Shown: in pieces, positions 887 to 64,000 of the stretch | Layout of the letters: each line of letters opens with the position of its first letter | Position numbering within the stretch: the first letter of the stretch is position 1 | Source of the DNA: Escherichia coli | Lineage (GTDB): Bacteria; Pseudomonadota; Gammaproteobacteria; Enterobacterales; Enterobacteriaceae | Direction: 5' to 3' (one strand) | Assembly: GCF_003019035.1 (NCBI RefSeq) | Contig: NZ_CP027447.1 | DNA length: 64,000 bases | Notes under the pieces: generated by a model | Database searches by the model: none | Seen by the model: the letters and a program-made list of their open reading frames with translations, nothing else | What the model was told of the DNA's origin: nothing | Translations under genes and position numbers: made by a program

Positions 887-901
887 AGATTGTTTCTTCG
901 A

Positions 902-1193: not shown

Positions 1194-1201
1194 AAAAAAG
1201 A

Positions 1202-2048: not shown

Positions 2049-2051
2049 CTG

Positions 2052-2081: not shown

Positions 2082-2089
2082 CGCATTTC

Positions 2090-4763: not shown

Positions 4764-4810
4764 GGACTACCCAGAATATTGACAACAATAAGCGCCACTA
4801 TAAAAGCACA

Positions 4811-6031: not shown

Positions 6032-6039
6032 ACTTTCTC

Positions 6040-8048
<2,009 letters not shown>

Positions 8049-8380
8049 TATTCACCTCAATAAGTAAAATGTAAGCCGTTGGCGGATTAGGCATCTTTAA
8101 GCGTAACCTGGATTTGCGCAGACAGGCGTCAATCCGACCTGATTTTTTGAATGATAAAATAAGTTTTCTGGTTTAGCCAGTAAAAGGGAGTGATGATAAC
8201 GATATTTGGTGACAAAACTCACAAAAGACACGCGTTTAATTTGCGATACGAATTAAATTTTCACACACTCTGTAGCAGATGATCTAACAATCTGATTACA
8301 GAACATCGGCAGTACAATTTGCAGCAAAATAAAAATACGGCTTTAAACGAGCCAAATAGGGTTCTCGTAGGGGGAATAAG
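8049..8380. promoter_or_regulatory. divergent nagB / nagE promoter region
   Basis: 332-bp AT-rich intergenic region between divergently oriented nagB and nagE; in this family it holds CRP and NagC operators, but individual sites were not mapped here. Confidence 0.5.
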
Positions 8381-10327
8381 ATGAATATTTTAGGTTTTTT
8401 CCAGCGACTCGGTAGGGCGTTACAGCTCCCTATCGCGGTGCTGCCGGTGGCGGCGCTGTTGCTGCGATTCGGTCAGCCAGATTTACTTAACGTTGCGTTT
8501 ATTGCCCAGGCGGGCGGTGCGATTTTTGATAACCTCGCATTAATCTTCGCCATCGGTGTGGCATCCAGCTGGTCGAAAGACAGCGCAGGTGCGGCGGCAC
8601 TGGCGGGTGCGGTAGGTTACTTTGTGTTAACCAAAGCGATGGTTACCATCAACCCAGAAATTAACATGGGTGTACTGGCGGGTATCATTACCGGTCTGGT
8701 TGGTGGCGCAGCTTATAACCGTTGGTCCGATATTAAACTGCCGGACTTCCTGAGTTTCTTCGGCGGCAAACGCTTTGTGCCGATTGCCACCGGCTTCTTC
8801 TGCCTGGTGCTGGCGGCCATTTTTGGTTACGTCTGGCCGCCGGTACAGCACGCTATCCATGCAGGCGGCGAGTGGATCGTTTCTGCGGGCGCGCTGGGTT
8901 CCGGTATCTTTGGTTTCATCAACCGTCTGCTGATCCCAACCGGTCTGCATCAGGTGCTGAACACCATCGCCTGGTTCCAGATTGGTGAATTCACCAACGC
9001 GGCGGGTACGGTTTTCCACGGTGATATCAACCGCTTCTATGCCGGTGACGGCACCGCGGGGATGTTCATGTCCGGCTTCTTCCCGATCATGATGTTCGGT
9101 CTGCCGGGTGCGGCGCTGGCGATGTACTTCGCAGCACCGAAAGAGCGCCGTCCGATGGTTGGCGGGATGTTGCTTTCTGTTGCTGTTACTGCGTTCCTGA
9201 CCGGTGTGACTGAGCCGCTGGAATTCCTGTTCATGTTCCTTGCACCGCTGCTGTACCTCCTGCACGCACTGCTGACCGGTATCAGCCTGTTTGTGGCAAC
9301 GTTGCTGGGTATCCATGCCGGCTTCTCTTTCTCTGCGGGGGCTATCGACTACGCGTTGATGTATAACCTGCCGGCCGCCAGCCAGAACGTCTGGATGCTG
9401 CTGGTGATGGGGGTTGTCTTCTTCGCTATCTACTTCGTGGTGTTCAGTTTGGTTATCCGCATGTTCAACCTGAAAACGCCAGGTCGTGAAGATAAAGAAG
9501 ACGAGATCGTTACTGAAGAGGCTAACAGCAATACTGAAGAAGGTCTCAATCAACTGGCAACCAACTATATTGCTGCGGTTGGCGGTACTGACAACCTGAA
9601 AGCCATTGACGCCTGTATTACTCGTCTGCGCCTGACCGTGGTTGACTCAGCTCGCGTCAACGATGCGATGTGTAAACGTCTGGGGGCTTCTGGGGTAGTG
9701 AAACTGAACAAACAGACTATTCAGGTGATTGTTGGCGCGAAAGCGGAATCCATTGGCGATGCAATGAAGAAAGTTGTTGCCCGTGGTCCGGTAGCCGCTG
9801 CGTCAGCTGAAACTGCTCCGGCAACTGCCGCGCCTGTAGCAAAACCGCAGGCTGTACCAAACGCAGTATCTATCGCGGAGCTGGTATCGCCGATTACCGG
9901 TGATGTTGTGGCACTGGATCAGGTTCCTGACGAAGCATTCGCCAGCAAAGCGGTGGGTGACGGTGTGGCGGTGAAACCGACAGATAAAATCGTCGTATCA
10001 CCAGCCGCAGGGACTATCGTGAAAATCTTCAACACCAACCACGCATTCTGCCTGGAAACTGAAAAAGGCGCGGAGATTGTCGTCCATATGGGTATCGACA
10101 CCGTAGCGCTGGAAGGTAAAGGCTTTAAACGTCTGGTGGAAGAGGGCGCGCAAGTAAGCGCAGGGCAACCGATTCTGGAAATGGATCTGGATTATCTGAA
10201 CGAAAACGCCCGCTCGATGATTAGCCCGGTGGTTTGCAGCAATATCGACGATTTCAGCGGCTTGATCATTAAAGCTCAGGGCCATGTCGTGGCGGGTCAA
10301 ACGCCGCTGTATGAAATCAAAAAGTAA
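8381..10327 (+). CDS. nagE: PTS N-acetylglucosamine-specific EIICBA component
   Basis: 648 aa; membrane EIIC domain followed by EIIB and EIIA domains. Confidence 0.95.
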   Translation: MNILGFFQRLGRALQLPIAVLPVAALLLRFGQPDLLNVAFIAQAGGAIFDNLALIFAIGVASSWSKDSAGAAALAGAVGYFVLTKAMVTINPEINMGVLAGIITGLVGGAAYNRWSDIKLPDFLSFFGGKRFVPIATGFFCLVLAAIFGYVWPPVQHAIHAGGEWIVSAGALGSGIFGFINRLLIPTGLHQVLNTIAWFQIGEFTNAAGTVFHGDINRFYAGDGTAGMFMSGFFPIMMFGLPGAALAMYFAAPKERRPMVGGMLLSVAVTAFLTGVTEPLEFLFMFLAPLLYLLHALLTGISLFVATLLGIHAGFSFSAGAIDYALMYNLPAASQNVWMLLVMGVVFFAIYFVVFSLVIRMFNLKTPGREDKEDEIVTEEANSNTEEGLNQLATNYIAAVGGTDNLKAIDACITRLRLTVVDSARVNDAMCKRLGASGVVKLNKQTIQVIVGAKAESIGDAMKKVVARGPVAAASAETAPATAAPVAKPQAVPNAVSIAELVSPITGDVVALDQVPDEAFASKAVGDGVAVKPTDKIVVSPAAGTIVKIFNTNHAFCLETEKGAEIVVHMGIDTVALEGKGFKRLVEEGAQVSAGQPILEMDLDYLNENARSMISPVVCSNIDDFSGLIIKAQGHVVAGQTPLYEIKK

Positions 10328-10335
10328 TCTTCTTT

Positions 10336-10410
10336 ATGCCTGATGCGACGCTTGAGCGTCGCATCCAACAATGACAAGCGGTGGAGATCTTCTCTGCCGC
10401 TTTTTTTTTC
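10336..10410 (+). terminator. REP-like hairpin plus T-run after nagE
   Basis: GATGCGACGC-TTGAG-CGTCGCATC palindrome followed by GCCGC and a run of nine T. Confidence 0.5.
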
Positions 10411-10529
10411 ATCAATCATCCCCATAATCTCAGTGAGATTTTCGATTTTCACTAACTAACAGTTGTCAGCCTGTCCCGCTTATAAGATCATACGCCGTTA
10501 TACGTTGTTTACGCTTTGAGGAATCCACG

Positions 10530-12194
10530 ATGAGTGAGGCAGAAGCCCGCCCGACTAACTTTATTCGTCAGATCATCGATGAAGATCTGGCCAGTGGTAA
10601 GCACACCACAGTACACACCCGTTTCCCGCCAGAGCCGAATGGCTATCTGCATATTGGCCATGCGAAATCTATCTGCCTGAACTTCGGGATCGCCCAGGAC
10701 TATAAAGGCCAGTGCAACCTGCGTTTCGACGACACTAACCCGGTAAAAGAAGATATCGAGTATGTCGATTCGATCAAAAACGACGTAGAGTGGTTAGGTT
10801 TTCACTGGTCTGGTAACGTCCGTTACTCCTCCGATTATTTTGATCAGCTCCACGCCTATGCGATCGAACTGATCAATAAAGGCCTGGCGTACGTTGATGA
10901 ACTGACGCCGGAACAGATCCGCGAATACCGTGGCACCCTGACGCAGCCGGGTAAAAACAGCCCGTACCGCAACCGCAGCGTTGAAGAGAACCTGGCGCTG
11001 TTCGAGAAAATGCGTACCGGCGGTTTTGAAGAAGGTAAAGCCTGCCTGCGTGCGAAAATCGACATGGCGTCGCCATTTATCGTAATGCGCGATCCGGTGC
11101 TGTACCGCATTAAATTTGCTGAACACCACCAGACTGGCAACAAGTGGTGCATCTACCCGATGTACGACTTCACACACTGCATCAGCGATGCGCTGGAAGG
11201 TATTACGCACTCTCTGTGTACGCTTGAGTTCCAGGACAACCGTCGCCTGTACGACTGGGTGCTGGACAACATCACCATTCCTGTTCACCCGCGCCAGTAC
11301 GAATTCTCGCGCCTGAATCTGGAATACACTGTGATGTCCAAGCGTAAGCTGAACCTGCTGGTGACCGACAAGCACGTTGAAGGCTGGGATGACCCGCGTA
11401 TGCCGACCATTTCCGGTCTGCGTCGTCGTGGTTACACTGCGGCTTCTATTCGTGAGTTCTGCAAACGCATTGGTGTGACCAAGCAGGACAACACCATTGA
11501 GATGGCGTCACTGGAATCCTGCATCCGTGAAGATCTCAACGAAAATGCGCCGCGCGCAATGGCGGTTATCGATCCGGTGAAACTGGTTATCGAAAACTAC
11601 CAGGGCGAAGGCGAAATGGTTACCATGCCGAACCATCCGAATAAACCGGAAATGGGCAGCCGTCAGGTGCCATTTAGCGGTGAGATTTGGATCGATCGCG
11701 CCGATTTCCGCGAAGAAGCTAACAAGCAGTACAAACGTCTGGTGCTGGGTAAAGAAGTGCGTCTGCGTAATGCTTACGTCATTAAGGCAGAACGCGTGGA
11801 GAAAGATGCCGAAGGCAATATCACCACCATCTTCTGTACTTATGACGCCGACACCTTAAGCAAAGATCCGGCAGATGGTCGTAAAGTGAAAGGTGTTATC
11901 CACTGGGTGAGCGCGGCACATGCGCTGCCGGTTGAAATCCGTTTGTATGACCGTCTGTTCAGCGTGCCGAACCCTGGTGCTGCGGATGATTTCCTGTCGG
12001 TGATTAACCCGGAATCGCTGGTGATCAAACAGGGCTTTGCTGAACCGTCGCTGAAAGATGCGGTTGCGGGTAAAGCATTCCAGTTTGAGCGTGAAGGTTA
12101 CTTCTGCCTCGACAGCCGCCATTCTACGGCGGAAAAACCGGTATTTAACCGCACCGTTGGGCTGCGTGATACCTGGGCGAAAGTAGGCGAGTAA
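10530..12194 (+). CDS. glnS: glutaminyl-tRNA synthetase
   Basis: 554 aa starting [24 protein letters not shown] motif (HIGH at [12 protein letters not shown]). Confidence 0.95.
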
Positions 12195-12205
12195 GTTTAC
12201 GTTGT

Positions 12206-12282
12206 CGGATAGAGCGTTCACGCCGCATCCGGCAAAAAATAGCAAACAAACCCAAACGCCGCGCTCCGCGGCGTTTTTTTTC
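12206..12282 (+). terminator. REP element plus intrinsic terminator after glnS
   Basis: REP-like CGGATAGAGCGTTCACGCCGCATCCGGCA, then AACGCCGCGCTCCGCGGCGTTTTTTTT hairpin with T-run. Confidence 0.6.
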
Positions 12283-12634
12283 TGCTTTTCTTCGCGAATT
12301 AATTCCGCTTCGTAATTTATTCATAAAGCAAATTTAAAATTACAAATCATAATTAAATAAAATGTAACCGCTTTCATCTTGCTGGAAATTCACGCATTTT
12401 TTCTTCAACACACCTTTCAACTACAACTTAAGCCTTGTAACAAAAATCATCAAAATATGTGCGGTTGCTCATGTTCTTACATTCTGGTTACAGAAAGAGA
12501 TTGATAATTCGCGTCGCGAAAAATAGTCTGTTCCTGTAGTCAGCGAGACTTTTCTCAACGCTACTTTTTTAATTTTTATTTTTTTCGCTGTTCACCTTTG
12601 GTGCAGCAATTTATACGTCAAAGAGGATTAACCC

Positions 12635-14041
12635 ATGCGTGCGTTTAGTGGCAAACGTAGTACGCTGGCGCTGGCTATCGCCGGTGTTACAGCTATGTCG
12701 GGCTTTATGGCAATTCCGGAGGCTCGCGCCGAAGGATTCATCGACGATTCAACCTTAACCGGCGGTATCTATTACTGGCAGCGTGAACGCGACCGTAAAG
12801 ATGTTACCGACGGCGATAAATACAAAACCAACCTTTCTCACTCCACCTGGAACGCCAACCTCGATTTTCAGTCCGGTTATGCTGCTGATATGTTCGGCCT
12901 TGATATTGCCGCGTTTACGGCGATTGAAATGGCGGAAAACGGCGACAGCTCTCACCCGAACGAAATCGCGTTTTCAAAAAGTAATAAAGCCTATGACGAA
13001 GACTGGTCCGGCGATAAAAGCGGTATAAGCCTGTATAAAGCGGCGGCTAAATTTAAATACGGTCCGGTGTGGGCGAGGGCAGGTTACATTCAGCCAACTG
13101 GTCAAACGCTGTTAGCGCCGCACTGGAGTTTTATGCCAGGCACCTATCAGGGGGCGGAGGCCGGGGCGAATTTTGATTATGGCGATGCTGGTGCGTTGAG
13201 TTTCTCCTACATGTGGACCAACGAATACAAAGCACCGTGGCATCTGGAAATGGATGAGTTTTATCAGAACGATAAAACCACCAAAGTTGATTATCTACAC
13301 TCCCTTGGGGCGAAGTACGACTTCAAAAATAACTTCGTACTGGAAGCGGCGTTTGGTCAGGCCGAAGGGTATATCGATCAATATTTTGCCAAAGCCAGCT
13401 ACAAATTTGATATCGCCGGTAGCCCGTTAACCACCAGCTACCAGTTCTATGGTACGCGCGATAAAGTTGACGATCGCAGCGTCAACGACCTTTACGACGG
13501 CACTGCCTGGCTGCAAGCGTTGACCTTTGGTTACCGGGCGGCTGATGTAGTGGATTTGCGTCTGGAAGGCACCTGGGTTAAAGCCGACGGTCAGCAGGGA
13601 TACTTCCTGCAACGTATGACTCCAACCTACGCTTCCTCGAACGGTCGCCTGGATATCTGGTGGGATAACCGTTCCGACTTCAACGCTAACGGCGAAAAAG
13701 CGGTCTTCTTCGGTGCGATGTATGACCTGAAAAACTGGAATCTTCCAGGCTTCGCCATCGGCGCTTCCTACGTTTACGCATGGGATGCTAAACCCGCTAC
13801 CTGGCAGAGCAATCCGGATGCGTACTACGACAAAAACCGGACTATTGAAGAGTCTGCCTACAGCCTGGATGCGGTCTACACCATTCAGGACGGTCGCGCC
13901 AAAGGCACGATGTTCAAACTGCACTTCACCGAATACGACAACCACTCCGACATCCCAAGCTGGGGCGGTGGTTACGGCAACATCTTCCAGGATGAGCGTG
14001 ACGTGAAATTTATGGTAATCGCACCATTCACCATCTTCTGA
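12635..14041 (+). CDS. chiP: chitooligosaccharide outer-membrane porin
   Basis: 468 aa with signal peptide, beta-barrel ending in C-terminal F; long AT-rich 5' leader (12290-12634), which in this family is an sRNA-regulated UTR. Confidence 0.9.
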
Positions 14042-33675: not shown

Positions 33676-33863
33676 GTATCAGGAAGATGTTCAGAGGAAT
33701 ATTTAGACACCGTTATACCAATCGAAACATATATTCATAAAACATATATAAATATTTTCCTAATTGTTTCTATCTGACGGATATCTCACTTAAGGCTTTC
33801 TTATAAATCTGTAGGGTTTCGCCTGTCAGCAGACAAATAACCCGATAAAACAAGGATGAGCAG

Positions 33864-36800
33864 ATGAGCGGAAAACCGGCGGCGCGTCAGGGCGACATGA
33901 CGCAGTATGGCGGTAGCATTGTTCAGGGTTCAGCCGGGGTACGTATTGGTGCTCCCACCGGCGTGGCCTGTTCGGTGTGCCCCGGCGGGGTGACGTCCGG
34001 CCATCCGGTCAATCCGCTGCTCGGTGCGAAGGTCCTTCCCGGCGAAACCGACCTTGCCCTGCCCGGCCCGCTGCCGTTCATCCTCTCCCGCACCTACAGC
34101 AGTTACCGGACAAAAACGCCCGCGCCGGTGGGGAGCCTCGGCCCCGGCTGGAAAATGCCCGCGGATATCCGCTTACAGCTGCGCGATAACACACTGATAC
34201 TCAGTGATAACGGCGGCAGGAGCCTGTATTTTGAGCACCTGTTTCCCGGTGAGGACGGTTACAGCCGCAGCGAGTCACTCTGGCTGGTGCGCGGCGGCGT
34301 GGCGAAACTGGATGAAGGTCACCGGCTGGCCGCACTCTGGCAGGCGCTGCCGGAAGAGCTTCGCCTGAGTCCGCATCGTTATCTGGCGACGAACAGTCCG
34401 CAGGGGCCGTGGTGGGTACTCGGCTGGTGTGAGCAGGTGCCGGAGGCGGATGAGGTGCTGCCCGCGCCGCTGCCGCCGTACCGGGTACTGACCGGGCTGG
34501 TGGACCGCTTCGGGCGCACACAGACGTTTCACCGTGAGGCTGGCGGTGAATTCAGCGGCGAAATCACCGGCGTGACGGATGGTGCCGGGCGTCACTTCCG
34601 GCTGGTACTGACCACGCAGGCGCTGCGGGCAGAAGAGGCCCGGCAGCAGGCCATTTCCGGCGGGACGGAACCGTCCGCTTTTCCTGATACCCTGCCGGAC
34701 TACACGGAATATGGCCGGGACAACGGCATCCGCCTGTCCGCCGTGTGGCTGACGCACGACCCGGAATATCCGGACAACCTGCCAGCCGCGCCGCTGGTAC
34801 GCTATGGCTGGACGCCACGCGGCGAACTGGCGGCGGTGTATGACCGCAGCGGCACACAGGTGCGCAGCTTTACTTACGATGATAAATACCGGGGCCGGAT
34901 GGTGGCGCACCGTCACACGGGCCGGCCGGAAATCCGTTACCGTTACGACAGCGACGGGCGGGTGACAGAACAGCTAAACCCGGCAGGCTTAAGCTACACG
35001 TATCAGTATGAGAAAGACCGCATCACCATCACCGACAGCCTGGACCGCCGTGAAGTCCTGCACACGCAGGGCGAAGGCGGGCTGAAGCGGGTGGTGAAAA
35101 AGGAACACGCGGACGGCAGCGTCACGCAGAGTCAGTTTGACGCGGTGGGCAGGCTTAAGGCACAGACGGATGCCGCAGGCCGGACGACTGAGTACAGCCC
35201 GGATGTGGTGACGGGACTCATCACGCGCATCACCACGCCGGATGGCAGGGCATCGGCGTTTTACTATAACCACCACAGCCAGTTAACGTCAGCCACCTGG
35301 CCTGACGGGCTGGAAATACGCCGGGAATATGATGAATCCGGCCGTCTGATTCAGGAAACCGCCCCTGACGGCGATATCACCCGCTACCGTTATGATAATC
35401 CACACAGTGACTTCCCCTGCGCAACGGAGGATGCCACCGGCAGCCGGAAAACCATGACGTGGAGCCGTTACGGTCAGTTGCTGACCTTCACCGACTGTTC
35501 CGGCTACCAGACCCGTTATGACCATGACCGCTTCGGGCAGATGACGGCGGTGCACCGCGAGGAAGGCCTGAGCCAGTGCCGCGCATACGACAGCCGTGGA
35601 CAGTTAATTGCGGTGAAAGACACGCAGGGCCATGAAACGCGGTATGAATACAACGCCGCCGGTGACCTGACCGCCGTCATTGCCCCGGACGGCAGCAGAA
35701 ACGGGGCACAGTACGATGCGTGGGGAAAGGCCGTCCGTACCACGCAGGGCGGGCTGACCCGCAGTATGGAATACGATGCTGCAGGACGGGTCATCCGCCT
35801 GACAAACGAAAACGGCAGCCACACCACCTTCCGTTACGATGTACTCGACCGGCTGATACAGGAAACCGGCTTTGACGGCCGCACACAGCGTTACCACCAC
35901 GACCTGACCGGCAAACTTATCCGCAGCGAGGATGAGGGGCTGGTCACCCACTGGCACTATGACGAAGCAGACCGCCTCACGCAGCGCACCGTGAATGGCG
36001 AAACCGCAGAGCGGTGGCAGTATGACGAACGCGGCTGGCTGACAGGCATCAGCCATCTCAGCGAAGGGCACCGGGTGACGGTGCATTACAGGTATGATGA
36101 GAAAGGCCGCCTGACCGGTGAGCGCCAGACGGTGCATCACCCGCAGACGGAAGCACTGCTCTGGCAGCATGAAACCAGACATGCGTACAATGCGCAGGGG
36201 CTGGCGAACCGCTGTATACCGGACAGCCTGCCCGCCGTGGAATGGCTGACTTATGGCAGTGGTTACCTGGCAGGGATGAAGCTGGGTGACTCGCCCCTGG
36301 TGGAGTACACCCGCGACCGCCTGCACCGGGAAACGCTGCGCAGCTTCGGCCGTTATGAACTCACCACCGCTTATACCCCTGCCGGGCAGTTACAGAGCCA
36401 GCACCTGAACAGCCTGCAGTATGACCGCGATTACACCTGGAACGACAACGGCGAACTCATTCGCATCAGCAGCCCGCGCCAGACCCGGAGTTACAGCTAC
36501 AGCGACTCCGGCAGGCTGACCGGCGTTCACACCACCGCAGCGAACCTGGATATCCGCATCCCGTATGCCACGGACCCGGCAGGTAACCGCCTGCCCGACC
36601 CGGAGCTGCACCCGGACAGCACCCTCAGCATGTGGCCGGATAACCGTATCGCCCGTGACGCGCACTATCTTTACCGGTATGACCGTCACGGCAGGCTGAC
36701 GGAGAAAACCGACCTCATCCCGGAAGGGGTTATCCGCACGGATGATGAGCGGACTCACCGGTACCATTACGACAGCCGGCACCGGCTGGTGCACTACACG

Positions 36801-38063
36801 CGGACACAATATGCAGAGCCGCTGGTCGAAAGTCGCTATCTTTACGACCCGCTGGGCCGCAGGGTGGCAAAACGGGTGTGGCGGCGTGAACGGGACCTGA
36901 CGGGCTGGATGTCGCTGTCACGGAAACCGGAAGTGACCTGGTACGGCTGGGACGGCGACCGGCTGACCACGATACAGAACGACAGAACCCGCATCCAGAC
37001 GATTTATCAGCCGGGGAGCTTCACGCCACTCATCAGGGTCGAAACTGCCACCGGTGAGCTGGCGAAAACGCAGCGCCGCAGCCTGGCGGATGCGCTTCAG
37101 CAGTCCGGCGGCGAAAACGGTGGCAGTGTGGTGTTCCCGCCGGTGCTGGTGCAGATGCTCGACCGGCTGGAAAGTGAAATCCTGGCTGACCGGGTGAGTG
37201 AGGAAAGCCGCCGCTGGCTGGCATCGTGCGGCCTGACGGTGGCGCAGATGCAAAACCAGATGGACCCGGTGTACACACCGGCGCGAAAAATCCACCTGTA
37301 CCACTGCGACCATCGCGGCCTGCCGCTGGCGCTTGTCAGCACGGAAGGGGCAACAGAATGGTGCGCAGAATACGATGAGTGGGGCAACCTGCTGAATGAA
37401 GAGAACCCGCACCAGCTGCAGCAGCTCATCCGCCTGCCGGGTCAGCAGTATGATGAGGAGTCCGGCCTGTATTACAACCGCCACCGCTATTATGACCCGC
37501 TGCAGGGGCGGTATATCACTCAGGATCCTATTGGGCTGAAGGGGGGATGGAATTTTTATCAGTATCCGTTGAATCCGGTTCAGTATATAGATTCAATGGG
37601 ACTGGCATCAAAATATGGACACTTAAATAATGGCGGATATGGAGCGAGACCCAACAAACCGCCTACGCCCGATCCAAGTAAATTGCCAGACATAGCGAAA
37701 CAATTAAGACTGCCATATCCTATTGACCAGGCCAGTAGTGCGCCTAATGTTTTCAAAACATTCTTCAGAGCATTAAGCCCTTACGACTACACACTGTATT
37801 GCAGGAAGTGGGTAAAACCAAATCTGACTTGTACGCCACAGGATGATCCCCAGTATCCAGGGATGGATACAAAGACAGCAAGTGATTACCTGCCACAGAC
37901 AAATTGGCCAACAACTCAATTACCACCAGGATATACTTGTGCAGAACCCTATTTATTCCCAGACATTAATAAACCCGATGGGCCAGCAACAGCAGGGATA
38001 GATGATTTGGGTGAAATTTTAGCTAAAATGAAACAGAGAACATCGAGAGGAATAAGAAAATGA
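33864..38063 (+). CDS. rhsC: Rhs-family polymorphic toxin (N-terminal PAAR-like region, YD-repeat shell, DPIGL core end, ~175-aa variable C-terminal tip)
   Basis: 1399 aa; PAARQGD motif at residues 5-11; GC-rich repeat core; DPIGL at 37523-37537; sharp GC drop after it; located after ybfA as rhsC is in K-12. Confidence 0.9.
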
Positions 38064-38629
38064 AAAGAATTTTGTTCTTTTTGCTGATGATATTTGTTAG
38101 TTTTGGTGTTATAGCTGATTGCGAAACACAAGCTAAAGATCAAGATTGCTTTACCATTTTCACTAAGGGTACTATTTTTTCCGCGTTTCCTGTCTTAAAT
38201 AATAAAACCATATGGAGATGGTATCAGAATGAGGACATAGGTGAGTATTATTGGCAAACAGAACTTGGTATATGTAAAAATAACAAATTCACACCAAGCG
38301 GGGCGAGACTCTTAATTCGCGTCGGATCACTACGCCTTAATGAAAATCATGCAACCAAAGGAACGTTGCAGGAGTTGCTAAATACAGCAGAAAAAACGGC
38401 GTTTCTCGGCGATCGGTTTAGAAGTTATATAAGAGCGGGTATCTATCAAAAAAAGAGCAGTGATCCAGCTCAGTTGTTGGCAGTCCTTGATAATTCAATC
38501 ATGGTTAAATATTTTAAAGATGAGAAGCCAACTTATGCTCGAATGACAGCACATCTCCCGAACAAAGATGAGTCTTACGAATGTTTAACAAAAGTACAGC
38601 ATGAACTGCTTCGTAGTGAAGAAAAATAA
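38060..38629 (+). CDS. predicted cognate immunity protein of the Rhs tip (signal-peptide bearing)
   Basis: 189 aa; start overlaps the rhs stop (ATGA); N-terminal [19 protein letters not shown] hydrophobic signal; AT-rich like the toxin tip. Confidence 0.55.
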
Positions 38630-38797
38630 AATCTCTTCCTGAGAAAATAAATTAACTATTCGAAAAAATATGTTCTTAATGGGTATCCAGGTACACCAGA
38701 AGGTCGATTTGGAAAAATGGATTCCGATGGTAAGAATATCATATATTCTGAATGTAATGTTTTACCCACAACTTTTGAGATTCGATAGGTGTAGAGC

Positions 38798-39100
38798 ATG
38801 AGAAACTCACTAATATTACTTATTATGATATTGTTTACAATATCACACTCAGTATTTGGAAAAGAAAATTCAGTGGAAATTTTAGTAAATAGTCGTGAAA
38901 TGGCTTTGGAATTATCATATGTTTACATTAAATATGTATACGGGAAAGAAAAAGCAGAATTTCAGAAACCATATAGTATTACAGATGACAATAATTGTTG
39001 GAAAATCGAGGGAAAACAACCGAAGACGTTAGGAGGAAATTTTACAATACTAATAGCGAAAAAAGATGGGCAAGTGTTGAATGTAATACACACAAAATAA
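38798..39100 (+). CDS. small secreted protein, likely orphan immunity protein
   Basis: 100 aa with signal peptide MRNSLILLIMILFTISHSVFG; AT-rich; lies directly after a start-less toxin-tip-like reading frame (38651-38788). Confidence 0.45.
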   Translation: MRNSLILLIMILFTISHSVFGKENSVEILVNSREMALELSYVYIKYVYGKEKAEFQKPYSITDDNNCWKIEGKQPKTLGGNFTILIAKKDGQVLNVIHTK

Positions 39101-39279
39101 TCCACTGTACAGTCGATTCAAATATTTTACCAAGGTGTGTTTTGTAACAATTTTGTGTACAATATGACTCTACATATCGACGAAAAAACCACTTGATTTG
39201 ACAGGAACACATTCAAAAAAATTTCTTTATTCATTTCAGGAGCGATTTTCATCTGTTACTTGAAGTATCTGTGAGATTA

Positions 39280-39645
39280 AGTGACTCCCCCTAACGTCGT
39301 ACTAAATAGTAATTACTGTCCATACCGGGAGCAGTATTCGGCGCTCCCCACATGCAGCAGAATAACCGCATCAGCGAAGATGTATTGTATTTTTACTATC
39401 ACAATGTGTACGGACGGTTTATGGAAAAGAATGAAAATTAGATACGCGATGGGGCGGCAGGTTACACGGTTATCACTACGATAGCCAATACTGGCTGGTG
39501 CATTACCGCCGTGAACAATAGGACGCCGTACTGCTGGAAATTTCTTACCTTTATGACTCCCCGCGCCGCCGTATTGGGAAACGGGAAGCAATCAAGATGA
39601 GGCTGATATAATGTGCGGAATGCCTGAGTATTTTTAGAATAGGGG
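39280..39645 (+). pseudogene. decayed fragment of a divergent Rhs core
   Basis: GC-rich island in an AT-rich stretch; frames read YHYDSQYWLVHYRREQ* and LYDSPRRRIGKRE, resembling the core segment [12 protein letters not shown]...[12 protein letters not shown] of the intact rhs, with stops and frameshifts. Confidence 0.5.
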
Positions 39646-39651
39646 GGTAAT

Positions 39652-40053
39652 ATGTTTGATAGAATATATCTTGGTGATCGAGCAATAAAAAAAATTGAAT
39701 TTTATTTATGGACTAAACAAATTAGAATTCAGGTTAATTTAATCTCAAGGATAGCCTATGGTACAACAGAATGGAATTTTTATGATAATGAAGACTTAGA
39801 AGATGGTTATTTGGTATTTTCAGATGTTAGTTTCTTCAATATAACTCCTAATGGCTCTATTCCTGATGATTATATAATTTCAATAATTACAGATAATGTC
39901 AATGTTGAATATTTTGAATCAACTATAGTTGCAGTTGGACAAATTCCAAATACAAATTCTGGAGACATTGATAATATTGGTGAGTGTCAAATTTTCATCA
40001 GGTATAAACACAGCTGGATTGAGAATAAATTCAAAGAAAAAATAATTGAATAA
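39652..40053 (+). CDS. hypothetical cytoplasmic protein, possible orphan immunity protein
   Basis: 133 aa; GGGGGG Shine-Dalgarno; very AT-rich; sits immediately after the decayed Rhs fragment. Confidence 0.45.
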   Translation: MFDRIYLGDRAIKKIEFYLWTKQIRIQVNLISRIAYGTTEWNFYDNEDLEDGYLVFSDVSFFNITPNGSIPDDYIISIITDNVNVEYFESTIVAVGQIPNTNSGDIDNIGECQIFIRYKHSWIENKFKEKIIE

Positions 40054-40145
40054 CCATGTTATGTATAGACATTTTAGATGGAACGAACCAGAGGAAGGCA
40101 TGCCTCCGACTTGGGTTATATGGGCACGGAGTTTTAGTGTAGTGA

Positions 40146-40400
40146 ACTCAACGACGCAAACCGAATAACCTGCCGCTGGCGCTTATCAGCACGGAAGGGG
40201 CAACAGAATGGTGCGCAGAATACGATGAATGGGGCAACCTGCTGAATGAAGAGAACCCGCACCAGCTGCAGCAGCTCATCCGCCTGCCGGGTCAGCAGTA
40301 TGATGAGGAGTCCGGCCTGTATTACAACCGCCACCGCTATTATGACCCGCTGCAGGGGCCAGGGAAAGATCACGTAACGCTGCTTTTTTGTACTAAATAA
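40146..40400 (+). pseudogene. start-less orphan Rhs core-end fragment with alternative 13-aa tip
   Basis: 40170-40358 is nearly identical to 37319-37507 of the intact rhs ([63 protein letters not shown]), then diverges to [13 protein letters not shown]; in-frame stop at 40143 and no start codon. Confidence 0.7.
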
Positions 40401-40503
40401 TTCGCATTTTATGTTTAAAAATTGAGATATTCCTCATTACCTAAAGCTGTTTTTCATTGCTTATACATGATCAAATACTCCTTACATAATTAAGGAGAAC
40501 AAA

Positions 40504-41352
40504 ATGGAACTTAAAAAATTGATGGAGCATATTTCTATTATCCCAGATTACAGACAAGCCTGGAAAGTGGAACATAAATTGTCTGATATTCTACTGTTGA
40601 CTATTTGTGACGTTATTTCTGGTGCAGAAGGTTGGGAAGATATAGAGGATTTTGGGGAAACACATCTCGATTTTTTAAAACAATATGGTGATTTTGAAAA
40701 TGGTATTCCTGTTCACGATACCATTGCCAGAGTTGTATCCTGTATCAGTCCTGCAAAATTTCACGAGTGCTTTATTAACTGGATGCGTGACTGCCATTCT
40801 TCAGATGATAAAGACGTCATTGCAATTGATGGAAAAACGCTCCGGCACTCTTATGACAAGAGTCGCCGCAAGGGAGCGATTCATGTCATTAGTGCGTTCT
40901 CAACAATGCACAGTCTGGTCATCGGACAGATCAAGACGGATGAGAAATCCAATGAGATCACAGCTATCCCGGAACTTCTTAACATGCTGAATATTAAAGG
41001 AAAAATCATCACAACTGATGCGATGGGTTGCCAGAAAGATATTGCAGAGAAGATACAAAAACAGGGCGGTGATTATTTATTCGCTGTAAAAGGAAACCAG
41101 GGGCGGCTAAATAAAGCCTTCGAGGAAAAATTTCCGCTGAAAGAATTAAATAATCCAGAGCATGGCAGTTACGCAATGAGTGAAAAGAGTCACGGCAGAG
41201 AAGAAATCCGTCTTCATATTGTTTGCGATGTCCCTGATGAACTTATTGATTTCACGTTTGAATGGAAAGGGCAGCCATGGACAGAAAATATCTGGCGTCA
41301 GTCCTTGCGGGGAGCGTGCTTTCGTAATTTTGCCCTGCTACAACAGGATTAA
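40504..41352 (+). mobile_element. ybfD: H-repeat-associated (ISAs1-family) transposase gene, internally deleted derivative (ybfD-like)
   Basis: 282-aa [35 protein letters not shown]... running into an out-of-frame tail; a 16-codon frame (41277-41327, [16 protein letters not shown]) that I recall as the C-terminus of full-length H-repeat proteins lies in another frame. Confidence 0.7.
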
Positions 41353-58982: not shown

Positions 58983-60200
58983 ATGAGTAGCGTAGATATT
59001 CTGGTCCCTGACCTGCCTGAATCCGTAGCCGATGCCACCGTCGCAACCTGGCATAAAAAACCCGGCGACGCAGTCGTACGTGATGAAGTGCTGGTAGAAA
59101 TCGAAACTGACAAAGTGGTACTGGAAGTACCGGCATCAGCAGACGGCATTCTGGATGCGGTTCTGGAAGATGAAGGTACAACGGTAACGTCTCGTCAGAT
59201 CCTTGGTCGCCTGCGTGAAGGCAACAGCGCGGGTAAAGAAACCAGCGCCAAATCTGAAGAGAAAGCGTCCACTCCGGCGCAACGCCAGCAGGCGTCTCTG
59301 GAAGAGCAAAACAACGATGCGTTAAGCCCGGCGATCCGTCGCCTGCTGGCTGAACATAACCTCGACGCCAGCGCCATTAAAGGCACCGGTGTGGGTGGTC
59401 GTCTGACCCGTGAAGATGTGGAAAAACATCTGGCGAAAGCCCCGGCGAAAGAGTCTGCTCCGGCAGCGGCTGCTCCGGCGGCGCAACCGGCCCTGGCTGC
59501 ACGTAGCGAAAAACGTGTGCCGATGACTCGCCTGCGTAAGCGTGTGGCAGAGCGTCTGCTGGAAGCGAAAAATTCCACCGCCATGCTGACCACGTTCAAC
59601 GAAGTCAACATGAAGCCGATTATGGATCTGCGTAAGCAGTACGGTGAAGCGTTTGAAAAACGCCACGGCATCCGTCTGGGCTTTATGTCCTTCTACGTGA
59701 AAGCGGTGGTTGAAGCCCTGAAACGTTACCCGGAAGTGAATGCGTCTATCGACGGTGATGATGTGGTCTACCACAACTATTTCGACGTCAGTATGGCGGT
59801 TTCTACGCCGCGCGGCCTGGTGACGCCGGTTCTGCGTGATGTGGATACCCTCGGCATGGCAGACATCGAGAAGAAAATTAAAGAGCTGGCAGTTAAAGGC
59901 CGTGACGGCAAGCTGACGGTTGAAGATCTGACCGGTGGTAACTTCACCATCACCAACGGTGGTGTGTTCGGTTCCCTGATGTCTACGCCGATCATCAACC
60001 CGCCGCAGAGCGCAATTCTGGGTATGCACGCTATCAAAGATCGTCCGATGGCGGTGAATGGTCAGGTTGAGATCCTGCCGATGATGTACCTGGCGCTGTC
60101 CTACGATCACCGTCTGATCGATGGTCGCGAATCCGTGGGCTTCCTGGTAACGATCAAAGAGTTGCTGGAAGATCCGACGCGTCTGCTGCTGGACGTGTAG
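58983..60200 (+). CDS. sucB: dihydrolipoyllysine-residue succinyltransferase (E2)
   Basis: 405 aa; lipoyl domain, Ala/Pro linker, catalytic DHRLIDG motif. Confidence 0.95.
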
Positions 60201-60222
60201 TAGTTTAAGTTTCACCTGCACT

Positions 60223-60253
60223 GTAGACCGACGTGGATAGGGTGTCGGTCTAC
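60223..60253 (+). other. perfect 10-bp stem-loop in the sucB-sucC spacer (possible mRNA processing or stability element)
   Basis: GTAGACCGAC-loop of 11-GTCGGTCTAC; no following T-run, so not a classic intrinsic terminator. Confidence 0.4.
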
Positions 60254-60293
60254 GGTTTAAAAGATAACGATTACTGAAGGATGGACAGAACAC

Positions 60294-61460
60294 ATGAACT
60301 TACATGAATATCAGGCAAAACAACTTTTTGCCCGCTATGGCTTACCAGCACCGGTGGGTTATGCCTGTACTACTCCGCGCGAAGCAGAAGAAGCCGCTTC
60401 AAAAATCGGTGCCGGTCCGTGGGTAGTGAAATGTCAGGTTCACGCTGGTGGCCGCGGTAAAGCGGGCGGTGTGAAAGTGGTAAACAGCAAAGAAGACATC
60501 CGTGCTTTTGCAGAAAACTGGCTGGGCAAGCGTCTGGTAACGTATCAAACAGATGCCAATGGCCAACCGGTTAACCAGATTCTGGTTGAAGCAGCGACCG
60601 ATATCGCTAAAGAGCTGTATCTCGGTGCCGTTGTAGACCGTAGTTCACGTCGCGTGGTCTTTATGGCCTCCACCGAAGGCGGCGTGGAAATCGAAAAAGT
60701 GGCGGAAGAAACTCCGCACCTGATCCACAAAGTTGCGCTTGATCCGCTGACTGGCCCGATGCCGTATCAGGGACGCGAGCTGGCGTTCAAACTGGGTCTG
60801 GAAGGTAAACTGGTTCAGCAGTTCACCAAAATCTTCATGGGCCTGGCGACCATTTTCCTGGAGCGCGACCTTGCTCTTATCGAAATTAACCCGCTGGTTA
60901 TTACCAAACAGGGCGATCTGATCTGCCTCGACGGCAAACTGGGTGCTGACGGCAACGCACTGTTCCGCCAGCCTGATCTGCGCGAAATGCGTGACCAGTC
61001 GCAGGAAGATCCGCGTGAAGCACAGGCTGCACAGTGGGAACTGAACTACGTTGCGCTGGACGGTAACATCGGTTGTATGGTTAACGGCGCAGGCCTGGCG
61101 ATGGGCACCATGGACATCGTTAAACTGCACGGCGGCGAACCGGCTAACTTCCTGGACGTTGGCGGCGGCGCAACCAAAGAGCGCGTAACCGAAGCGTTCA
61201 AAATCATCCTCTCTGACGACAAAGTGAAAGCCGTTCTGGTTAACATCTTCGGCGGTATCGTTCGTTGCGACCTGATCGCTGACGGTATCATCGGCGCGGT
61301 AGCGGAAGTGGGTGTTAACGTACCGGTCGTGGTACGTCTGGAAGGTAACAACGCCGAACTCGGCGCGAAGAAACTGGCTGACAGCGGCCTGAATATTATT
61401 GCAGCAAAAGGTCTGACGGATGCAGCTCAGCAGGTTGTTGCCGCAGTGGAGGGGAAATAA
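60294..61460 (+). CDS. sucC: succinyl-CoA synthetase beta subunit
   Basis: 388 aa from [18 protein letters not shown]. Confidence 0.95.
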
Positions 61461-62329
61461 TGTCCATTTTAATTGATAAAAACACCAAGGTTATCTGCCA
61501 GGGCTTTACCGGTAGCCAGGGGACTTTCCACTCAGAACAGGCTATTGCATACGGCACTAAAATGGTTGGCGGCGTAACCCCAGGTAAAGGCGGCACCACC
61601 CACCTCGGCCTGCCAGTGTTCAACACCGTGCGTGAAGCTGTTGCTGCTACTGGCGCTACCGCTTCTGTTATCTACGTACCAGCACCGTTCTGCAAAGACT
61701 CCATTCTGGAAGCTATTGATGCAGGCATCAAACTGATTATCACCATCACTGAAGGCATCCCGACGCTGGATATGCTGACCGTGAAGGTGAAACTGGATGA
61801 AGCGGGCGTTCGCATGATCGGCCCGAACTGCCCGGGCGTTATCACTCCGGGTGAATGCAAAATCGGTATCCAGCCTGGTCACATTCACAAACCGGGTAAA
61901 GTGGGTATCGTTTCCCGTTCCGGTACACTGACCTATGAAGCGGTTAAACAGACCACGGATTACGGTTTCGGTCAGTCGACCTGTGTTGGTATCGGCGGCG
62001 ACCCGATCCCTGGCTCTAACTTTATCGACATCCTCGAAATGTTCGAAAAAGATCCGCAGACCGAAGCGATCGTGATGATCGGTGAGATCGGCGGTAGCGC
62101 TGAAGAAGAAGCGGCTGCGTACATCAAAGAGCACGTTACCAAGCCTGTTGTGGGTTACATCGCTGGTGTGACTGCGCCGAAAGGCAAACGTATGGGCCAC
62201 GCGGGTGCGATCATTGCCGGTGGGAAAGGGACTGCGGATGAGAAATTCGCTGCTCTGGAAGCCGCAGGCGTGAAAACCGTTCGCAGCCTGGCTGATATCG
62301 GTGAAGCACTGAAAACTGTTCTGAAATAA
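61460..62329 (+). CDS. sucD: succinyl-CoA synthetase alpha subunit
   Basis: 289 aa; start overlaps the sucC stop. Confidence 0.95.
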
Positions 62330-62430
62330 ATATCTGTAATAAGAAATAGCCCTCGCCGCTTCCCTCTACAGGAATGGCGAAGGGCTGTCGGTTTCGACAT
62401 GGTTGGCCATCATATGATGGCCTTTTTTAT
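62330..62430 (+). ncRNA. sdhX: sdhX-type sRNA (RybD) in the sucD 3' UTR with shared terminator
   Basis: 3' UTR contains GCCCTCGCC...GGCGAAGGGC stem and terminal GGCCATCATATGATGGCC hairpin plus TTTTTT; position matches the known 3'UTR-derived sRNA. Confidence 0.5.
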
Positions 62431-63824
62431 GCCTTAAACGTTAACCACGGTCGAAATCTGACCGCAGGTTGAATTAATCCGGCTTCTTGTTGGGCTTCGA
62501 TAACCGGACCAATATCTTTATAAGCCGCTGGCGCTTCTTCAAGACGTCGTTCTTCGCGCAATGTGACGCATTGCCACGGCAGCGTTGACTCTTCAGTCGC
62601 GCTTGAGCGCATGGCCTGCCGACGCTGGCTGCGTCCTGCTCCGTGACTGCAAGACCACAGCCACTCCGGGTTGCCGCAACCAACCGCAAGCCACGAATAA
62701 TCACCCATGGAACCGGGGATTAACGCCAGATCGCCCGCGCGTGCCGGTGTTGCACCTTTGCGATGAATATTCATTTCATGCTCGTGAAGGATGATGTTAT
62801 GCGGCACATCCACCACCAGATGTGAATCATCCTGATGAAATAAATCGGCAAAACATACGCGAACCATTTCCGCAATGGTCACGCGATTTAACCATGCGTA
62901 ACGCGCCGCCATTCCCATCGCTTGTAGATATTCCTCCGCCAGTCCGCCTGCCAGGCCATATAACCCGCTTTGTGGATGTTTATGTCCGGTGGGCCATTCA
63001 GCACGGGCGCGATCCATCCAGCGTCTTCCGACGTAAAAGCCAACATCTCGCGATCCACTGTGGATCATCACCACAATATCGCCCGTTTTCAGCCCTTGTT
63101 GCCAGGCAACATGGCGATCAACCACGCTATCAACCACCTGAAGTTCAATAAAATGATTACCTGAACCCGGCGTACCAAGACAAGGATCGCGGAGTAATGG
63201 GCGGTCCGTTACCAGCAGGGCGGGTGGGGCATAACGCGAATGACTGTTATGCTCGTTAAGCCCAATGCAGCGGTCAATCTCTTGTACCATTCGGGGGATA
63301 TTCGTGCGTGTCCAGAGACCTGCTGATGGCAAGGCTGACATGCACTCTGCCGGTCCGTCATCAAAAAGCGCGGTGAACGCCTGTGCGGATAACGGAACAT
63401 CGCGCTCATTTTGCAGTAGCACTTGCGTTAACCGCTGAGCGATGACGTCTTTATTCGCTTCGGCTTGCTCAAGTGTTAATCCGGTCGTCAGCAGCCGCAT
63501 GCCACAAGAAATATCGGTGCCGATGGCCGCAGGAATGACTAAATCCGGCGTAGAGGCGACTACCGCGCCAACGGGGACGCCATTGCCGGGATGAAAATCT
63601 GGCGTCGCACAGGTCTGGCGTACGTAACCTGGATGGTCTGGTATCTTCACTTCTGCAAAATCAAGCAGTTGTGTCACTGCTTTTTCTTCCAGCGGCAGTT
63701 CGTCCGGCAGCAGTACGTGGGCACTGGCTCCTGATGGACGACATAATGAAACAATATTGTTGGCGCGGGAAAGTTGGATCCCTTTGCGCAGAAAGGCTTT
63801 ATCAAGCCTTGAAAGATGATGCAT
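62427..63824 (-). CDS. RtcB-family RNA ligase paralog, 465 aa, with N-terminal extension
   Basis: Family motifs seen in the translation: IPAAIGTDISCGM, GTPGSGNHFIE, IHSGSRDVG, IPGSMGDYS, CSHGAGR, AYKDI; longer than the 408-aa canonical enzyme as I recall it. Confidence 0.85.
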   Translation of the reverse strand: MHHLSRLDKAFLRKGIQLSRANNIVSLCRPSGASAHVLLPDELPLEEKAVTQLLDFAEVKIPDHPGYVRQTCATPDFHPGNGVPVGAVVASTPDLVIPAAIGTDISCGMRLLTTGLTLEQAEANKDVIAQRLTQVLLQNERDVPLSAQAFTALFDDGPAECMSALPSAGLWTRTNIPRMVQEIDRCIGLNEHNSHSRYAPPALLVTDRPLLRDPCLGTPGSGNHFIELQVVDSVVDRHVAWQQGLKTGDIVVMIHSGSRDVGFYVGRRWMDRARAEWPTGHKHPQSGLYGLAGGLAEEYLQAMGMAARYAWLNRVTIAEMVRVCFADLFHQDDSHLVVDVPHNIILHEHEMNIHRKGATPARAGDLALIPGSMGDYSWLAVGCGNPEWLWSCSHGAGRSQRRQAMRSSATEESTLPWQCVTLREERRLEEAPAAYKDIGPVIEAQQEAGLIQPAVRFRPWLTFKA

Positions 63825-64000
63825 AACGCTGTCCTGAAATATAGACGTTAAACAACCCCCTTTATTGCGAGGGTAATTTTGTCTTTCCGGTCAGCAGCCA
63901 GCAAAAGGGAAAGAAAACGCGCGTAGTGTATGCAGCAATGACGATCAATACAAGATAAAAAAGACTATTAACAAACGGGGGTGTTATAAAAGGGGTCAGT

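Follow-up and report, generated by a model that had tools for sequence, protein, structure and literature searches.

The window analysed here, a stretch of 64,000 nucleotides of Escherichia coli DNA, is collinear with annotated housekeeping genes (ubiF/asnB/nag, followed by kdp-ybfA-rhs and then sdh/suc) and is 99.93–100% identical over its whole length to E. coli SCU-301. The gene of interest lies at the rhsC locus in the order kdpFABC-ybfA-rhs, matching E. coli, and its features are collected in Table 1. Its product, the RhsC-locus Rhs, is a full-length match to the NCBIfam model NF041261 RHS_core (2630.8 bits against a cut-off of 2000, with residues 1–1247 on model positions 1–1261) and is thus a member of the RHS element core proteins. 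The layout is that of a Rhs/YD-repeat toxin, with a DUF6531 plug that aligns with the plugs of Tse5 and Pseudomonas protegens RhsA, RHS repeats (PF05593, 224 bits over 13 stretches; PF03527, 58 bits; Pfam RHS match at residues 1143–1179), a Rhs-associated core, a variable tip and a downstream candidate immunity gene. A Pfam scan of the toxin region gave no match and assigned it to no known family. The start of the ybfC-like reading frame overlaps the rhs stop codon, and its product likewise belongs to no family in the Pfam and NCBIfam scans.

Table 1. Features of the rhs gene at the rhsC locus and of its flanks (positions in the window)
Feature	Position	Strand	Details and basis
Shine-Dalgarno AAGGA	33852..33856	+	7 nt 5' of the rhs ATG; read directly
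Rhs ORF, rhsC-locus 'RHS element core protein'	33864..38063	+	1399 aa, ATG start
Single PAAR repeat, residues 2–29	33867..33950	+	Pfam, NCBIfam, PDB and sister-Rhs alignments
Conserved tether, residues 30–47, with invariant C36-S37-x-C39-P40-G41	33951..34004	+	Invariant alignment columns
N-terminal plug DUF6531, residues 46–123	33999..34232	+	Pfam PF20148, 66.3 bits against a cut-off of 24.1
Predicted autocleavage site between H47 and P48	34002..34007	+	Alignment with Tse5 shell chain 8cp6_B
Rhs-associated core / C-terminal plug, residues 1170–1247, ending in DPIGL	37371..37604	+	TIGR03696, 80.5 bits
Variable C-terminal toxin region, residues 1248–1399	37605..38060	+	DNA 97% to the K-12 orphan ybfO tip
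ybfC orthologue, 189 aa, probable cognate immunity gene	38060..38629	+	93% identical to K-12 YbfC

The translation of the Rhs reading frame agrees exactly with the protein start in which an earlier note had recognised a PAAR signature. A TAA codon in frame with rhs at 33846–33848, six codons upstream of the ATG, rules out a longer N-terminus, and the DNA preceding the start is AT-rich and non-coding; an upstream PAAR-coding remnant or an extended N-terminus was rejected on these grounds. Only 47 residues therefore stand before the invariant PVNP motif that opens the plug. An architecture of the prePAAR/Eag-dependent class I was likewise considered and rejected, as prePAAR_I finds no match in the protein, the gene 5' of rhs is ybfA (DUF2517) rather than a DUF1795 gene, and 47 residues are too short to hold transmembrane segments.

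The PAAR tetrapeptide is not significant by itself, because 12 copies occur in the six-frame translation of the window, a single one of which lies in a real reading frame with the flanking consensus. The weight is carried by the extended match, the stretch KPAARxGDxxxxGGxIxxGSxxVxIG, which is recognised by Pfam PF05488 PAAR_motif at E 0.003–0.007 when the N-terminal fragment is scanned. The earlier note had proposed a domain search of residues 1–100, which does return PAAR_motif, yet at 17.0 bits (18.3 bits for residues 1–47) against a gathering threshold of 27, and with the full 1399-residue protein as query there is no match at all. The aligned part comprises Rhs residues 2–20 on profile positions 51–69 of 70. 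NCBIfam NF033420 T6SS_PAAR_dom behaves similarly, scoring 16.3 bits against a cut-off of 124 and covering residues 2–29 on model positions 68–94 of 94 alone. A profile of 27 homologous N-termini, searched against the PDB, detects solved PAAR proteins with E-values between 1e-12 and 1e-6 (9rce_c 1.2e-12, 4jiv_D 1.7e-7, 4jiw_D 1.7e-6). What this family profile matches best is in every case the last repeat, namely residues 72–98 of 99 in 9rce_c, 67–93 of 93 in both 4jiv_D and 4jiw_D, and 163–194 in Tre23, with E-values spanning 1e-12 to 5e-6. Residues 2–29 also align with the last repeat of Tas1, and alignment with sister Rhs proteins carrying three repeats places the N-terminus on their repeat 3. 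These alignments establish a true homology between the N-terminus and PAAR repeats.

The PAAR domain itself is said to have been defined by Shneider and co-workers in 2013 as three tandem repeats of about 85–95 residues in total that form a three-sided cone. The 47 residues ahead of the plug hold one such repeat, and the spike-capping domain implied by the earlier note, which drew it over 33864–34100 (residues 1–79), is not supported: one repeat of three is present, below the curated thresholds, and the PAAR-like part ends at residue 47, with the remainder of that interval falling in DUF6531 (residues 46–123). Among relatives, the one-repeat form is found in 93 of the 150 best representatives, and the position of the initiating methionine is kept among them down to about 50% identity, so by sequence comparison it is a common and conserved state. 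The C36-S37-x-C39-P40-G41 tether occurs in one-repeat and three-repeat relatives alike, and P48-V49-N50-P51 is invariant among the 27 relatives. AlphaFold2, run on residues 1–134 with 27 sequences, gave a pLDDT below 50 for residues 1–51, a model too poor for a fold comparison, so that the fold prediction proposed in the earlier note speaks neither for nor against a PAAR fold.

The N-terminus could alternatively be a complete but divergent PAAR domain that folds into a cone and caps VgrG on its own. The signature is present, and in-silico studies assign 'a PAAR domain' to proteins of the RhsA–D type (PMC7216683; PMC6730261). However, the fragment has 47 residues compared to about 90 in solved PAAR proteins (4jiv_D, 93 aa; 9rce_c, 99 aa), one repeat alone aligns, the scores reach 17–18 of the required 27 bits and 16 of 124 bits, and the equivalent of residues 30–47 in Tse5 is a tether enclosed by the shell. 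Furthermore, no residue is conserved at the site where other PAAR repeats have His/Cys, which varies between Y, K, H, T, I, D and N. Taken together, this makes a complete domain highly improbable.

The closest solved relative of the whole RhsC-locus Rhs is Tse5 (E 1.8e-127 in the PDB), also known as PA2684 or RhsP1, an effector of the Pseudomonas aeruginosa H1-T6SS (PDB 8cp6/9i9y). In both proteins, an N-terminal fragment of 47 residues precedes P48-V-N-P and the DUF6531 plug, and residue 1 of the Tse5 shell chain 8cp6_B aligns with P48 of the RhsC-locus Rhs. The N-terminal fragment of Tse5 (Tse5-NT, MSGLPVSHVGEKVSGGVISTGSPTVHVG..., chain 8cp6_A) is found with the 27-sequence profile at E 0.0054, aligned from Met1, and the RhsC-locus Rhs thus has the arrangement of a Tse5-type Rhs, in which a fragment of about 47 residues homologous to Tse5-NT precedes P-V-N-P and the plug. 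Tse5-NT is described as a PAAR-like fragment required for T6SS secretion that is cleaved off between K47 and P48, and its last 18 residues (30–47) are anchored inside the shell (PMC10684867); it has also been labelled 'cryptic PAAR-like' (PMC7376260). Residues 1–29 are not resolved in the Tse5 structure. The two proteins differ in several respects. The PAAR signature has been lost in Tse5, where it reads PVSH, and is kept in the RhsC-locus Rhs; tse5 is described as using a VgrG spike, whereas the RhsC-locus rhs is 'neighbourless'; and the C-terminal toxins are unrelated, that of Tse5 being a pore former and the RhsC-locus tip being without a family. Position 47, just ahead of the cut, is a lysine in Tse5 and a histidine here, and by analogy with Tse5, the one protein of the two for which cleavage is known, the RhsC-locus Rhs is likely cleaved between H47 and P48. 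The preferred reading, held at a probability of roughly 0.7 for the explanation as a whole, is that the first 47 residues form a Tse5-type 'mini-PAAR' targeting module instead of a full PAAR domain.

As the earlier note had stated, the 64,000-nt window contains no T6SS genes, and no vgrG, hcp or T6SS core gene lies beside the RhsC-locus rhs. Its suggestion that the machinery is encoded elsewhere also held, the genome search being made by proxy in the near-identical SCU-301, which carries a T6SS cluster at aspV (3.897–3.927 Mb), about 470 kb from the rhs locus. The genes tssA-C, E-G and J-M, tagH, vasI, VasL and two hcp genes are called intact in this cluster, while the annotation gives frameshifts in tssH and vgrG, which may reflect assembly errors or a defective system. 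Within the cluster, hcp-vgrG is directly followed by a paralogue encoding a Rhs core protein with nearly the same N-terminus as the RhsC-locus Rhs. In another example of this hcp, vgrG, rhs run all three genes are called intact, and the vgrG-rhs junction is present in 2852 of 5426 complete E. coli genomes. Two distant relatives with one repeat, P0039 and P0080, are also encoded directly downstream of vgrG. The occurrence of vgrG at an rhsE-type locus was considered as an example of linkage and set aside in favour of the vgrG-rhs pair of the T6SS cluster, because the two examples inspected, both in other strains, are pseudogenes. A review that cites Ma et al. 2017 (PMC6730261) groups 'neighbourless' E. 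coli Rhs proteins with those of the T6SS2 cluster and reports that killing by Rhs-CT3 requires ClpV2. T6SS delivery of the RhsC-locus Rhs, which the earlier note had deemed probable, is hence supported by genomic context through the vgrG-linked paralogue, although the RhsC-locus gene itself does not stand beside T6SS genes.

That position leaves room for a different reading, in which the one-repeat stub is a relic and this neighbourless Rhs is not exported by a T6SS, being kept as a selfish toxin-immunity module or acting inside the cell. Besides the locus being free of vgrG and T6SS genes, Rhs core genes are found in 5423 of the 5426 E. coli genomes, whereas the T6SS type of the SCU-301 aspV cluster, the only system counted here, occurs in 2279 of them (42%). 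K-12 RhsC keeps residues 1–63 identical to those of the RhsC-locus Rhs, and the aspV locus of K-12 has no T6SS cluster. Because Rhs is near-universal and the aspV-type system is not, many carriers may be unable to export Rhs, as far as this one system is concerned. In a study on Salmonella, RHS elements are further described as behaving like a toxin-antitoxin pair (PMC7043789). However, the stub and its start codon are strongly conserved between lineages, even at identities as low as about 50%, which argues for purifying selection, and the vgrG-linked Rhs within the SCU-301 T6SS cluster starts with an almost identical N-terminus. Gene conversion between paralogues could preserve the stub, yet would preserve its function equally, and secretion of Tse5 requires the equivalent fragment (PMC10684867). 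A relic is therefore considered unlikely. The example of K-12, which retains the N-terminus without an aspV T6SS cluster, also means that absence of a T6SS from a genome would not bear on homology, contrary to the earlier note, which had counted it as a refutation.

In the preferred reading of a targeting module, residues 2–29 are a single PAAR repeat, homologous to the third and final repeat of a PAAR cone. By analogy with Tse5, the Cys-x-x-Cys-Pro tether (residues 30–47) would be threaded into the Rhs shell and gripped by the DUF6531 plug, terminating at the likely autocleavage site between H47 and P48. The exposed repeat could then dock the loaded Rhs cage on the VgrG trimer tip of the T6SS encoded at the E. 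coli aspV locus; firing would carry the cage into an adjacent cell, in which the toxin at the C-terminus (residues 1248–1399) would act, and the YbfC-like protein encoded just downstream would protect the producer. Homology, repeat count, architecture and the genomic linkage of a nearly identical N-terminus to vgrG are established, and VgrG binding, cleavage and export are what we infer for the RhsC-locus Rhs. A single repeat facing the three-fold symmetric VgrG tip counts against docking.

A solution to this mismatch would be that the N-terminus is 'one-third PAAR', with VgrG being capped once three copies, from the same or different Rhs paralogues, join in trans into a PAAR-like cap, one per subunit of the trimer. 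Close relatives that share the tether switch between one and three repeats: the three-repeat P0056 has the one-repeat P0064 as its nearest such relative (80% identity), and P0061 has P0082 (74%), while the three repeats of P0061 are each 56–63% identical to the RhsC-locus repeat. Furthermore, the SCU-301 T6SS cluster has no separate PAAR gene. Neither another PAAR-like gene nor a PAAR-like Pfam match among the unnamed proteins was found in it, and further PAAR-type reading frames in the window and in the cluster amount to out-of-frame tetrapeptides. The median number of Rhs core matches in an E. coli genome is 5. On the other hand, AlphaFold2 gave three concatenated repeats a mean pLDDT of 33.5, an uninformative value obtained with an alignment from one-repeat homologues alone, three cages of ~150 kDa on a single spike tip look sterically demanding, and a supporting stoichiometry was not found in the published literature. 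The proposal is accordingly regarded as a long shot. Its consequences would be considerable: a single spike could bear up to three Rhs cages and, since the E. coli paralogues share nearly the same N-terminus, up to three different toxins, and the switching between one and three repeats would represent the building of one cap in cis or in trans.

The PAAR-type start of the RhsC-locus Rhs is real, largely known and ordinary, as E. coli Rhs proteins are already treated as PAAR-Rhs effectors in published work. The protein is likely a T6SS effector with its delivery machinery far from the gene, and for annotation purposes 'orphan' rhs genes are not to be taken as independent of a T6SS. A useful correction concerns the domain label: what stands at the N-terminus of E. 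coli Rhs is one PAAR repeat rather than a PAAR domain, and searches at domain thresholds therefore overlook it. How these very common toxins, and likewise their solved relative Tse5, are mounted on the spike is not explained by the textbook model, in which each VgrG trimer carries one PAAR cone.

Compared to canonical PAAR proteins (PF05488), such as Vibrio cholerae VCA0105 (4JIV) and E. coli c1882 (4JIW), whose last repeat is homologous to Rhs residues 2–29, the RhsC-locus Rhs has one repeat instead of three in about 93 residues, and its family lacks the conserved His/Cys at the apex position. P. protegens RhsA (7Q97) and Photorhabdus Rhs1/Tre23 (7PQ5) have a Rhs cage and a DUF6531 plug in common with the RhsC-locus Rhs, whose repeat aligns with the last PAAR repeat of Tre23. 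However, these prePAAR class I Rhs proteins have N-terminal regions of about 230–300 residues ahead of the plug (the plug alignment of 7q97_A begins at residue 235), of 29 kDa in Rhs1 and 25 kDa in RhsA and with predicted transmembrane regions included (PMC10684867), and the RhsC-locus Rhs has none of this long region. Three-repeat sisters such as P0103, P0102 and P0061 share the GxACSxCPGG tether, PVNP and DUF6531, with 50–56% identity in the N-terminal region. They differ by ~60 extra N-terminal residues that constitute PAAR repeats 1 and 2, pass Pfam PAAR_motif at 66–142 bits and include a protein, P0103, whose gene follows vgrG inside a T6SS cluster. A further known counterpart is RhsC of E. 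coli K-12 (b0700), which occupies the same kdpF-ybfA-rhs locus with a core that is 95% identical in DNA. The window differs in carrying the orphan ybfO tip with ybfC downstream in place of the K-12 RhsC tip and ybfB, and the presence of a ybfO-type tip at this locus is an ordinary case of C-terminal displacement.

The Rhs protein of the window belongs to the RHS core family, matching the full-length "RHS element core protein" model NF041261 at 2630.8 bits (cut-off 2000). Its K-12 orthologue is RhsC, which lies at the same locus, with 95% identical core DNA and identical protein residues 1–63. The surrounding DNA is a segment of the E. coli chromosome, being 100% identical to strain SCU-301 (NZ_CP051751.1) over positions 1–13088 and 60194–64000 and 99.93% identical over 12999–60360. 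The annotated gene order runs from ubiF through a tRNA cluster, asnB, nagDCAB-nagE, glnS, chiPQ, fur, fldA, seqA, pgm and potE-speF to kdpEDCBAF, ybfA and rhs; orphan modules, ybgA and phr come next, followed by gltA, sdhCDAB and sucAB(CD). A Shine-Dalgarno-like AAGGA is located 7 nt upstream of the rhs ATG. An in-frame TAA at 33846–33848 and the AT-rich upstream DNA leave no possibility of an earlier start, and the protein start quoted in the earlier note matches the translation of this reading frame exactly. Among the 12 PAAR tetrapeptides in the six-frame translation of the window, only that of rhs lies within a real open reading frame with flanking consensus; the tetrapeptide alone carries no significance, whereas the extended pattern does.

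Features of the window Rhs protein and the DNA downstream of its gene
Feature	Position	Strand	Remark
rhs ORF	33864..38063	+	1399 aa
DUF6531 (plug)	Rhs residues 46-123		domain match
RHS repeats	Rhs protein		13 stretches
Rhs-associated core	Rhs residues 1170-1247		domain match
ybfC-like gene	38060..38629		
NTF2-fold immunity protein	38798..39100		PF15631
DUF6258 protein	39652..40053		
Rhs core-end fragment	40169-40359		~190 bp
ISAs1/H-repeat transposase remnant	40504..41352		ybfD-like

The earlier note placed a PAAR domain at the N-terminus of this protein. Homology to PAAR repeats is confirmed, but the domain is incomplete. Domain searches match the final positions of the PAAR models below their cut-offs: residues 2–20 fall on positions 51–69 of 70 in the Pfam PAAR_motif profile (17.0–18.3 bits, cut-off 27), and residues 2–29 on positions 68–94 of 94 in NCBIfam T6SS_PAAR_dom (16.3 bits, cut-off 124). 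By curated family criteria, the N-terminus is outside the PAAR domain family. Single-sequence matches in the PDB align residues 2–29 to SalCis10 residues 71–98 (99 aa) and VCA0105 residues 67–93 (93 aa). Searching the PDB with a profile of 27 homologous N-termini brings such matches to significance, namely 9rce_c (E 1.2e-12), 4jiv_D (1.7e-7), 4jiw_D (1.7e-6), Tre23 (5.3e-6, residues 163–194) and Tas1 (5.8e-5), with the last PAAR repeat being the best-matching stretch in every case. With the DUF6531 match beginning at residue 46 and no variation in P48-V-N-P, only 47 residues are left for the PAAR-like part, compared to ~93–99 residues in solved PAAR proteins. By sequence comparison, the N-terminus is thus a PAAR homologue with only one repeat out of three.

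A search with residues 1–125 against 1.84 billion representative proteins yielded 443 matches at E ≤ 0.001. Among the best 150 of these 443, 93 have the one-repeat form, with Cys-x-x-Cys-Pro at ~36 and the Met start in the same place, a layout that persists down to ~50% identity. Seven of the same 150 (P0061, P0094, P0102, P0103, P0104, P0113 and the partial P0056) carry ~60 extra N-terminal residues that form two more PAAR repeats, and these long forms pass the Pfam PAAR_motif cut-off (66–142 bits). When aligned with them, window residues 1–29 are placed on repeat 3, followed in register by the GxACSxCPGG tether, PVNP and the plug. The nearest relatives of P0056, P0061 and P0113 are short forms (P0064 at 80%, P0082 at 74% and P0095 at 64% identity, respectively), while P0094, P0102, P0103 and P0104 are mutual closest relatives. 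This scattering of long among short forms indicates that the two states interconverted more than once. In the similarity ranking, three-repeat forms stand beside one-repeat forms with the same tether and plug at at least three separate places. Short forms vary at the position where the repeats of long forms hold His or Cys; P0061 has Tyr in all three repeats where other long forms have His/His/Cys.

No T6SS genes were found among the genes of the 64-kb window, in agreement with the earlier note, which had placed the machinery elsewhere. In the near-identical proxy SCU-301, a T6SS cluster is indeed located at the aspV tRNA locus, ~470 kb away (3.897–3.927 Mb). It comprises tssB, tssC, tssE, tssF, tssG, tagH, tssJ, tssK, tssL, tssH, vasI, tssA, tssM, VasL and two hcp, then vgrG and, directly after it, an RHS element core protein. 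This vgrG-linked paralogue has nearly the same N-terminus as the window Rhs, and no other PAAR-type ORF or Pfam match was found in the cluster. The tssH (clpV), vgrG and linked rhs genes are annotated as frameshifted, which would render the T6SS of SCU-301 defective if real, but is treated as a caveat because this assembly shows many indels. In strain 19KM1776, hcp, a 702-aa vgrG and an rhs with the same N-terminus are all called intact, and a small ORF follows them, while another rhs copy farther downstream is frameshifted. The VgrG of this strain lacks an adaptor domain and has the gp27/gp5 domains that are usual for VgrG. Of 5426 complete E. coli genomes, 5423 have the Rhs core, 2852 the vgrG-rhs junction and 2279 tssBC of the aspV-type T6SS. 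Of five distant one-repeat relatives placed on their contigs, two (P0039 and P0080) are encoded directly downstream of vgrG and two (P0064 and P0116) are neighbourless, while the contig of P0046, at 4.5 kb, is too short to show its neighbours; the three-repeat P0103 follows vgrG inside a T6SS cluster. K-12 rhsC retains residues 1–63 unchanged, and the K-12 aspV locus is without a T6SS cluster. In both genomes of other E. coli strains examined (L006, L007), the vgrG upstream of the Rhs at the rhsE-type locus carries a frameshift or an internal stop, making it a pseudogene.

At the other end of the gene, the C-terminal tip equals that of the K-12 orphan ybfO (97% DNA identity), and the next gene encodes a protein 93% identical to K-12 YbfC; the locus has this ybfO/ybfC-type pair in place of the RhsC tip and ybfB of K-12. 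The joining of the rhs core to a ybfO-type tip, with ybfC next (36558–38671), where ybfO is a downstream orphan in K-12, looks like C-terminal displacement through recombination between core and orphan. The signal-peptide-like N-terminus of the window YbfC is a hint that the uncharacterised toxin acts in the periplasm. In the orphan-module array that follows (38798–41352), the NTF2-fold immunity and DUF6258 genes lack a counterpart at the K-12 locus. Over the 47-kb block aligned with SCU-301, 22 of the 33 differences (9 indel positions included) lie within the rhs ORF, at 34415–37183, and the ORF is intact in the window and annotated as frameshifted at the same locus in SCU-301. These differences could reflect gene conversion between paralogues or misassembly, the gene being repeated.

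Over its whole length, the protein has its best solved relative in the P. aeruginosa T6SS Rhs toxin Tse5 (8cp6, E 1.8e-127). Tse5 is processed to Tse5-NT (M1–K47), shell (P48–L1168) and toxin; residues 1–29 are unresolved in the structure, the DUF6531 plug anchors the last 18 residues of Tse5-NT inside the shell, and the 5-kDa Tse5-NT is described as holding only a PAAR-like domain, required for secretion (PMC10684867). It has also been termed "cryptic PAAR-like" (PMC7376260). Tse5-NT (MSGLPVSHVGEKVSGGVISTGSPTVHVGSSA) aligns from Met1 to the one-repeat family (profile E 0.0054) and the first residue of the Tse5 shell chain aligns with window P48; hence, the window Rhs has the Tse5 architecture, within which its PAAR signature is intact. 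Neither residues 1–51 nor three concatenated repeats were modelled with confidence by AlphaFold2, which fits the disorder of Tse5 residues 1–29 without VgrG and weighs neither for nor against a PAAR-like fold. The N-terminus is best regarded as a Tse5-type module of a single PAAR repeat (2–29), a conserved Cys-x-x-Cys tether (30–47) and a probable cleavage site between H47 and P48 ahead of the plug. With a probability of roughly 0.7, this module targets the Rhs cage to a VgrG spike of the T6SS encoded far away. The sequence data establish the homology, the number of repeats, the architecture and the linkage of this N-terminus to vgrG; VgrG binding, cleavage and export are inferred from them.

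According to the review PMC6730261 (after Ma et al. 2017), neighbourless Rhs-CTs are a family related to the Rhs of the E. coli T6SS2 cluster, Rhs-CT3 killing is abolished in a ClpV2 mutant and the O157 Rhs Z5014 mediates antagonism. Given these reports, the delivery proposed in the earlier note is already in the literature. In the literature covered, where reviews stood for the two key primary papers, no statement on the one-repeat nature of E. coli Rhs was found. In E. coli, a PAAR-like N-terminus of this kind is an ordinary feature that has been described before.
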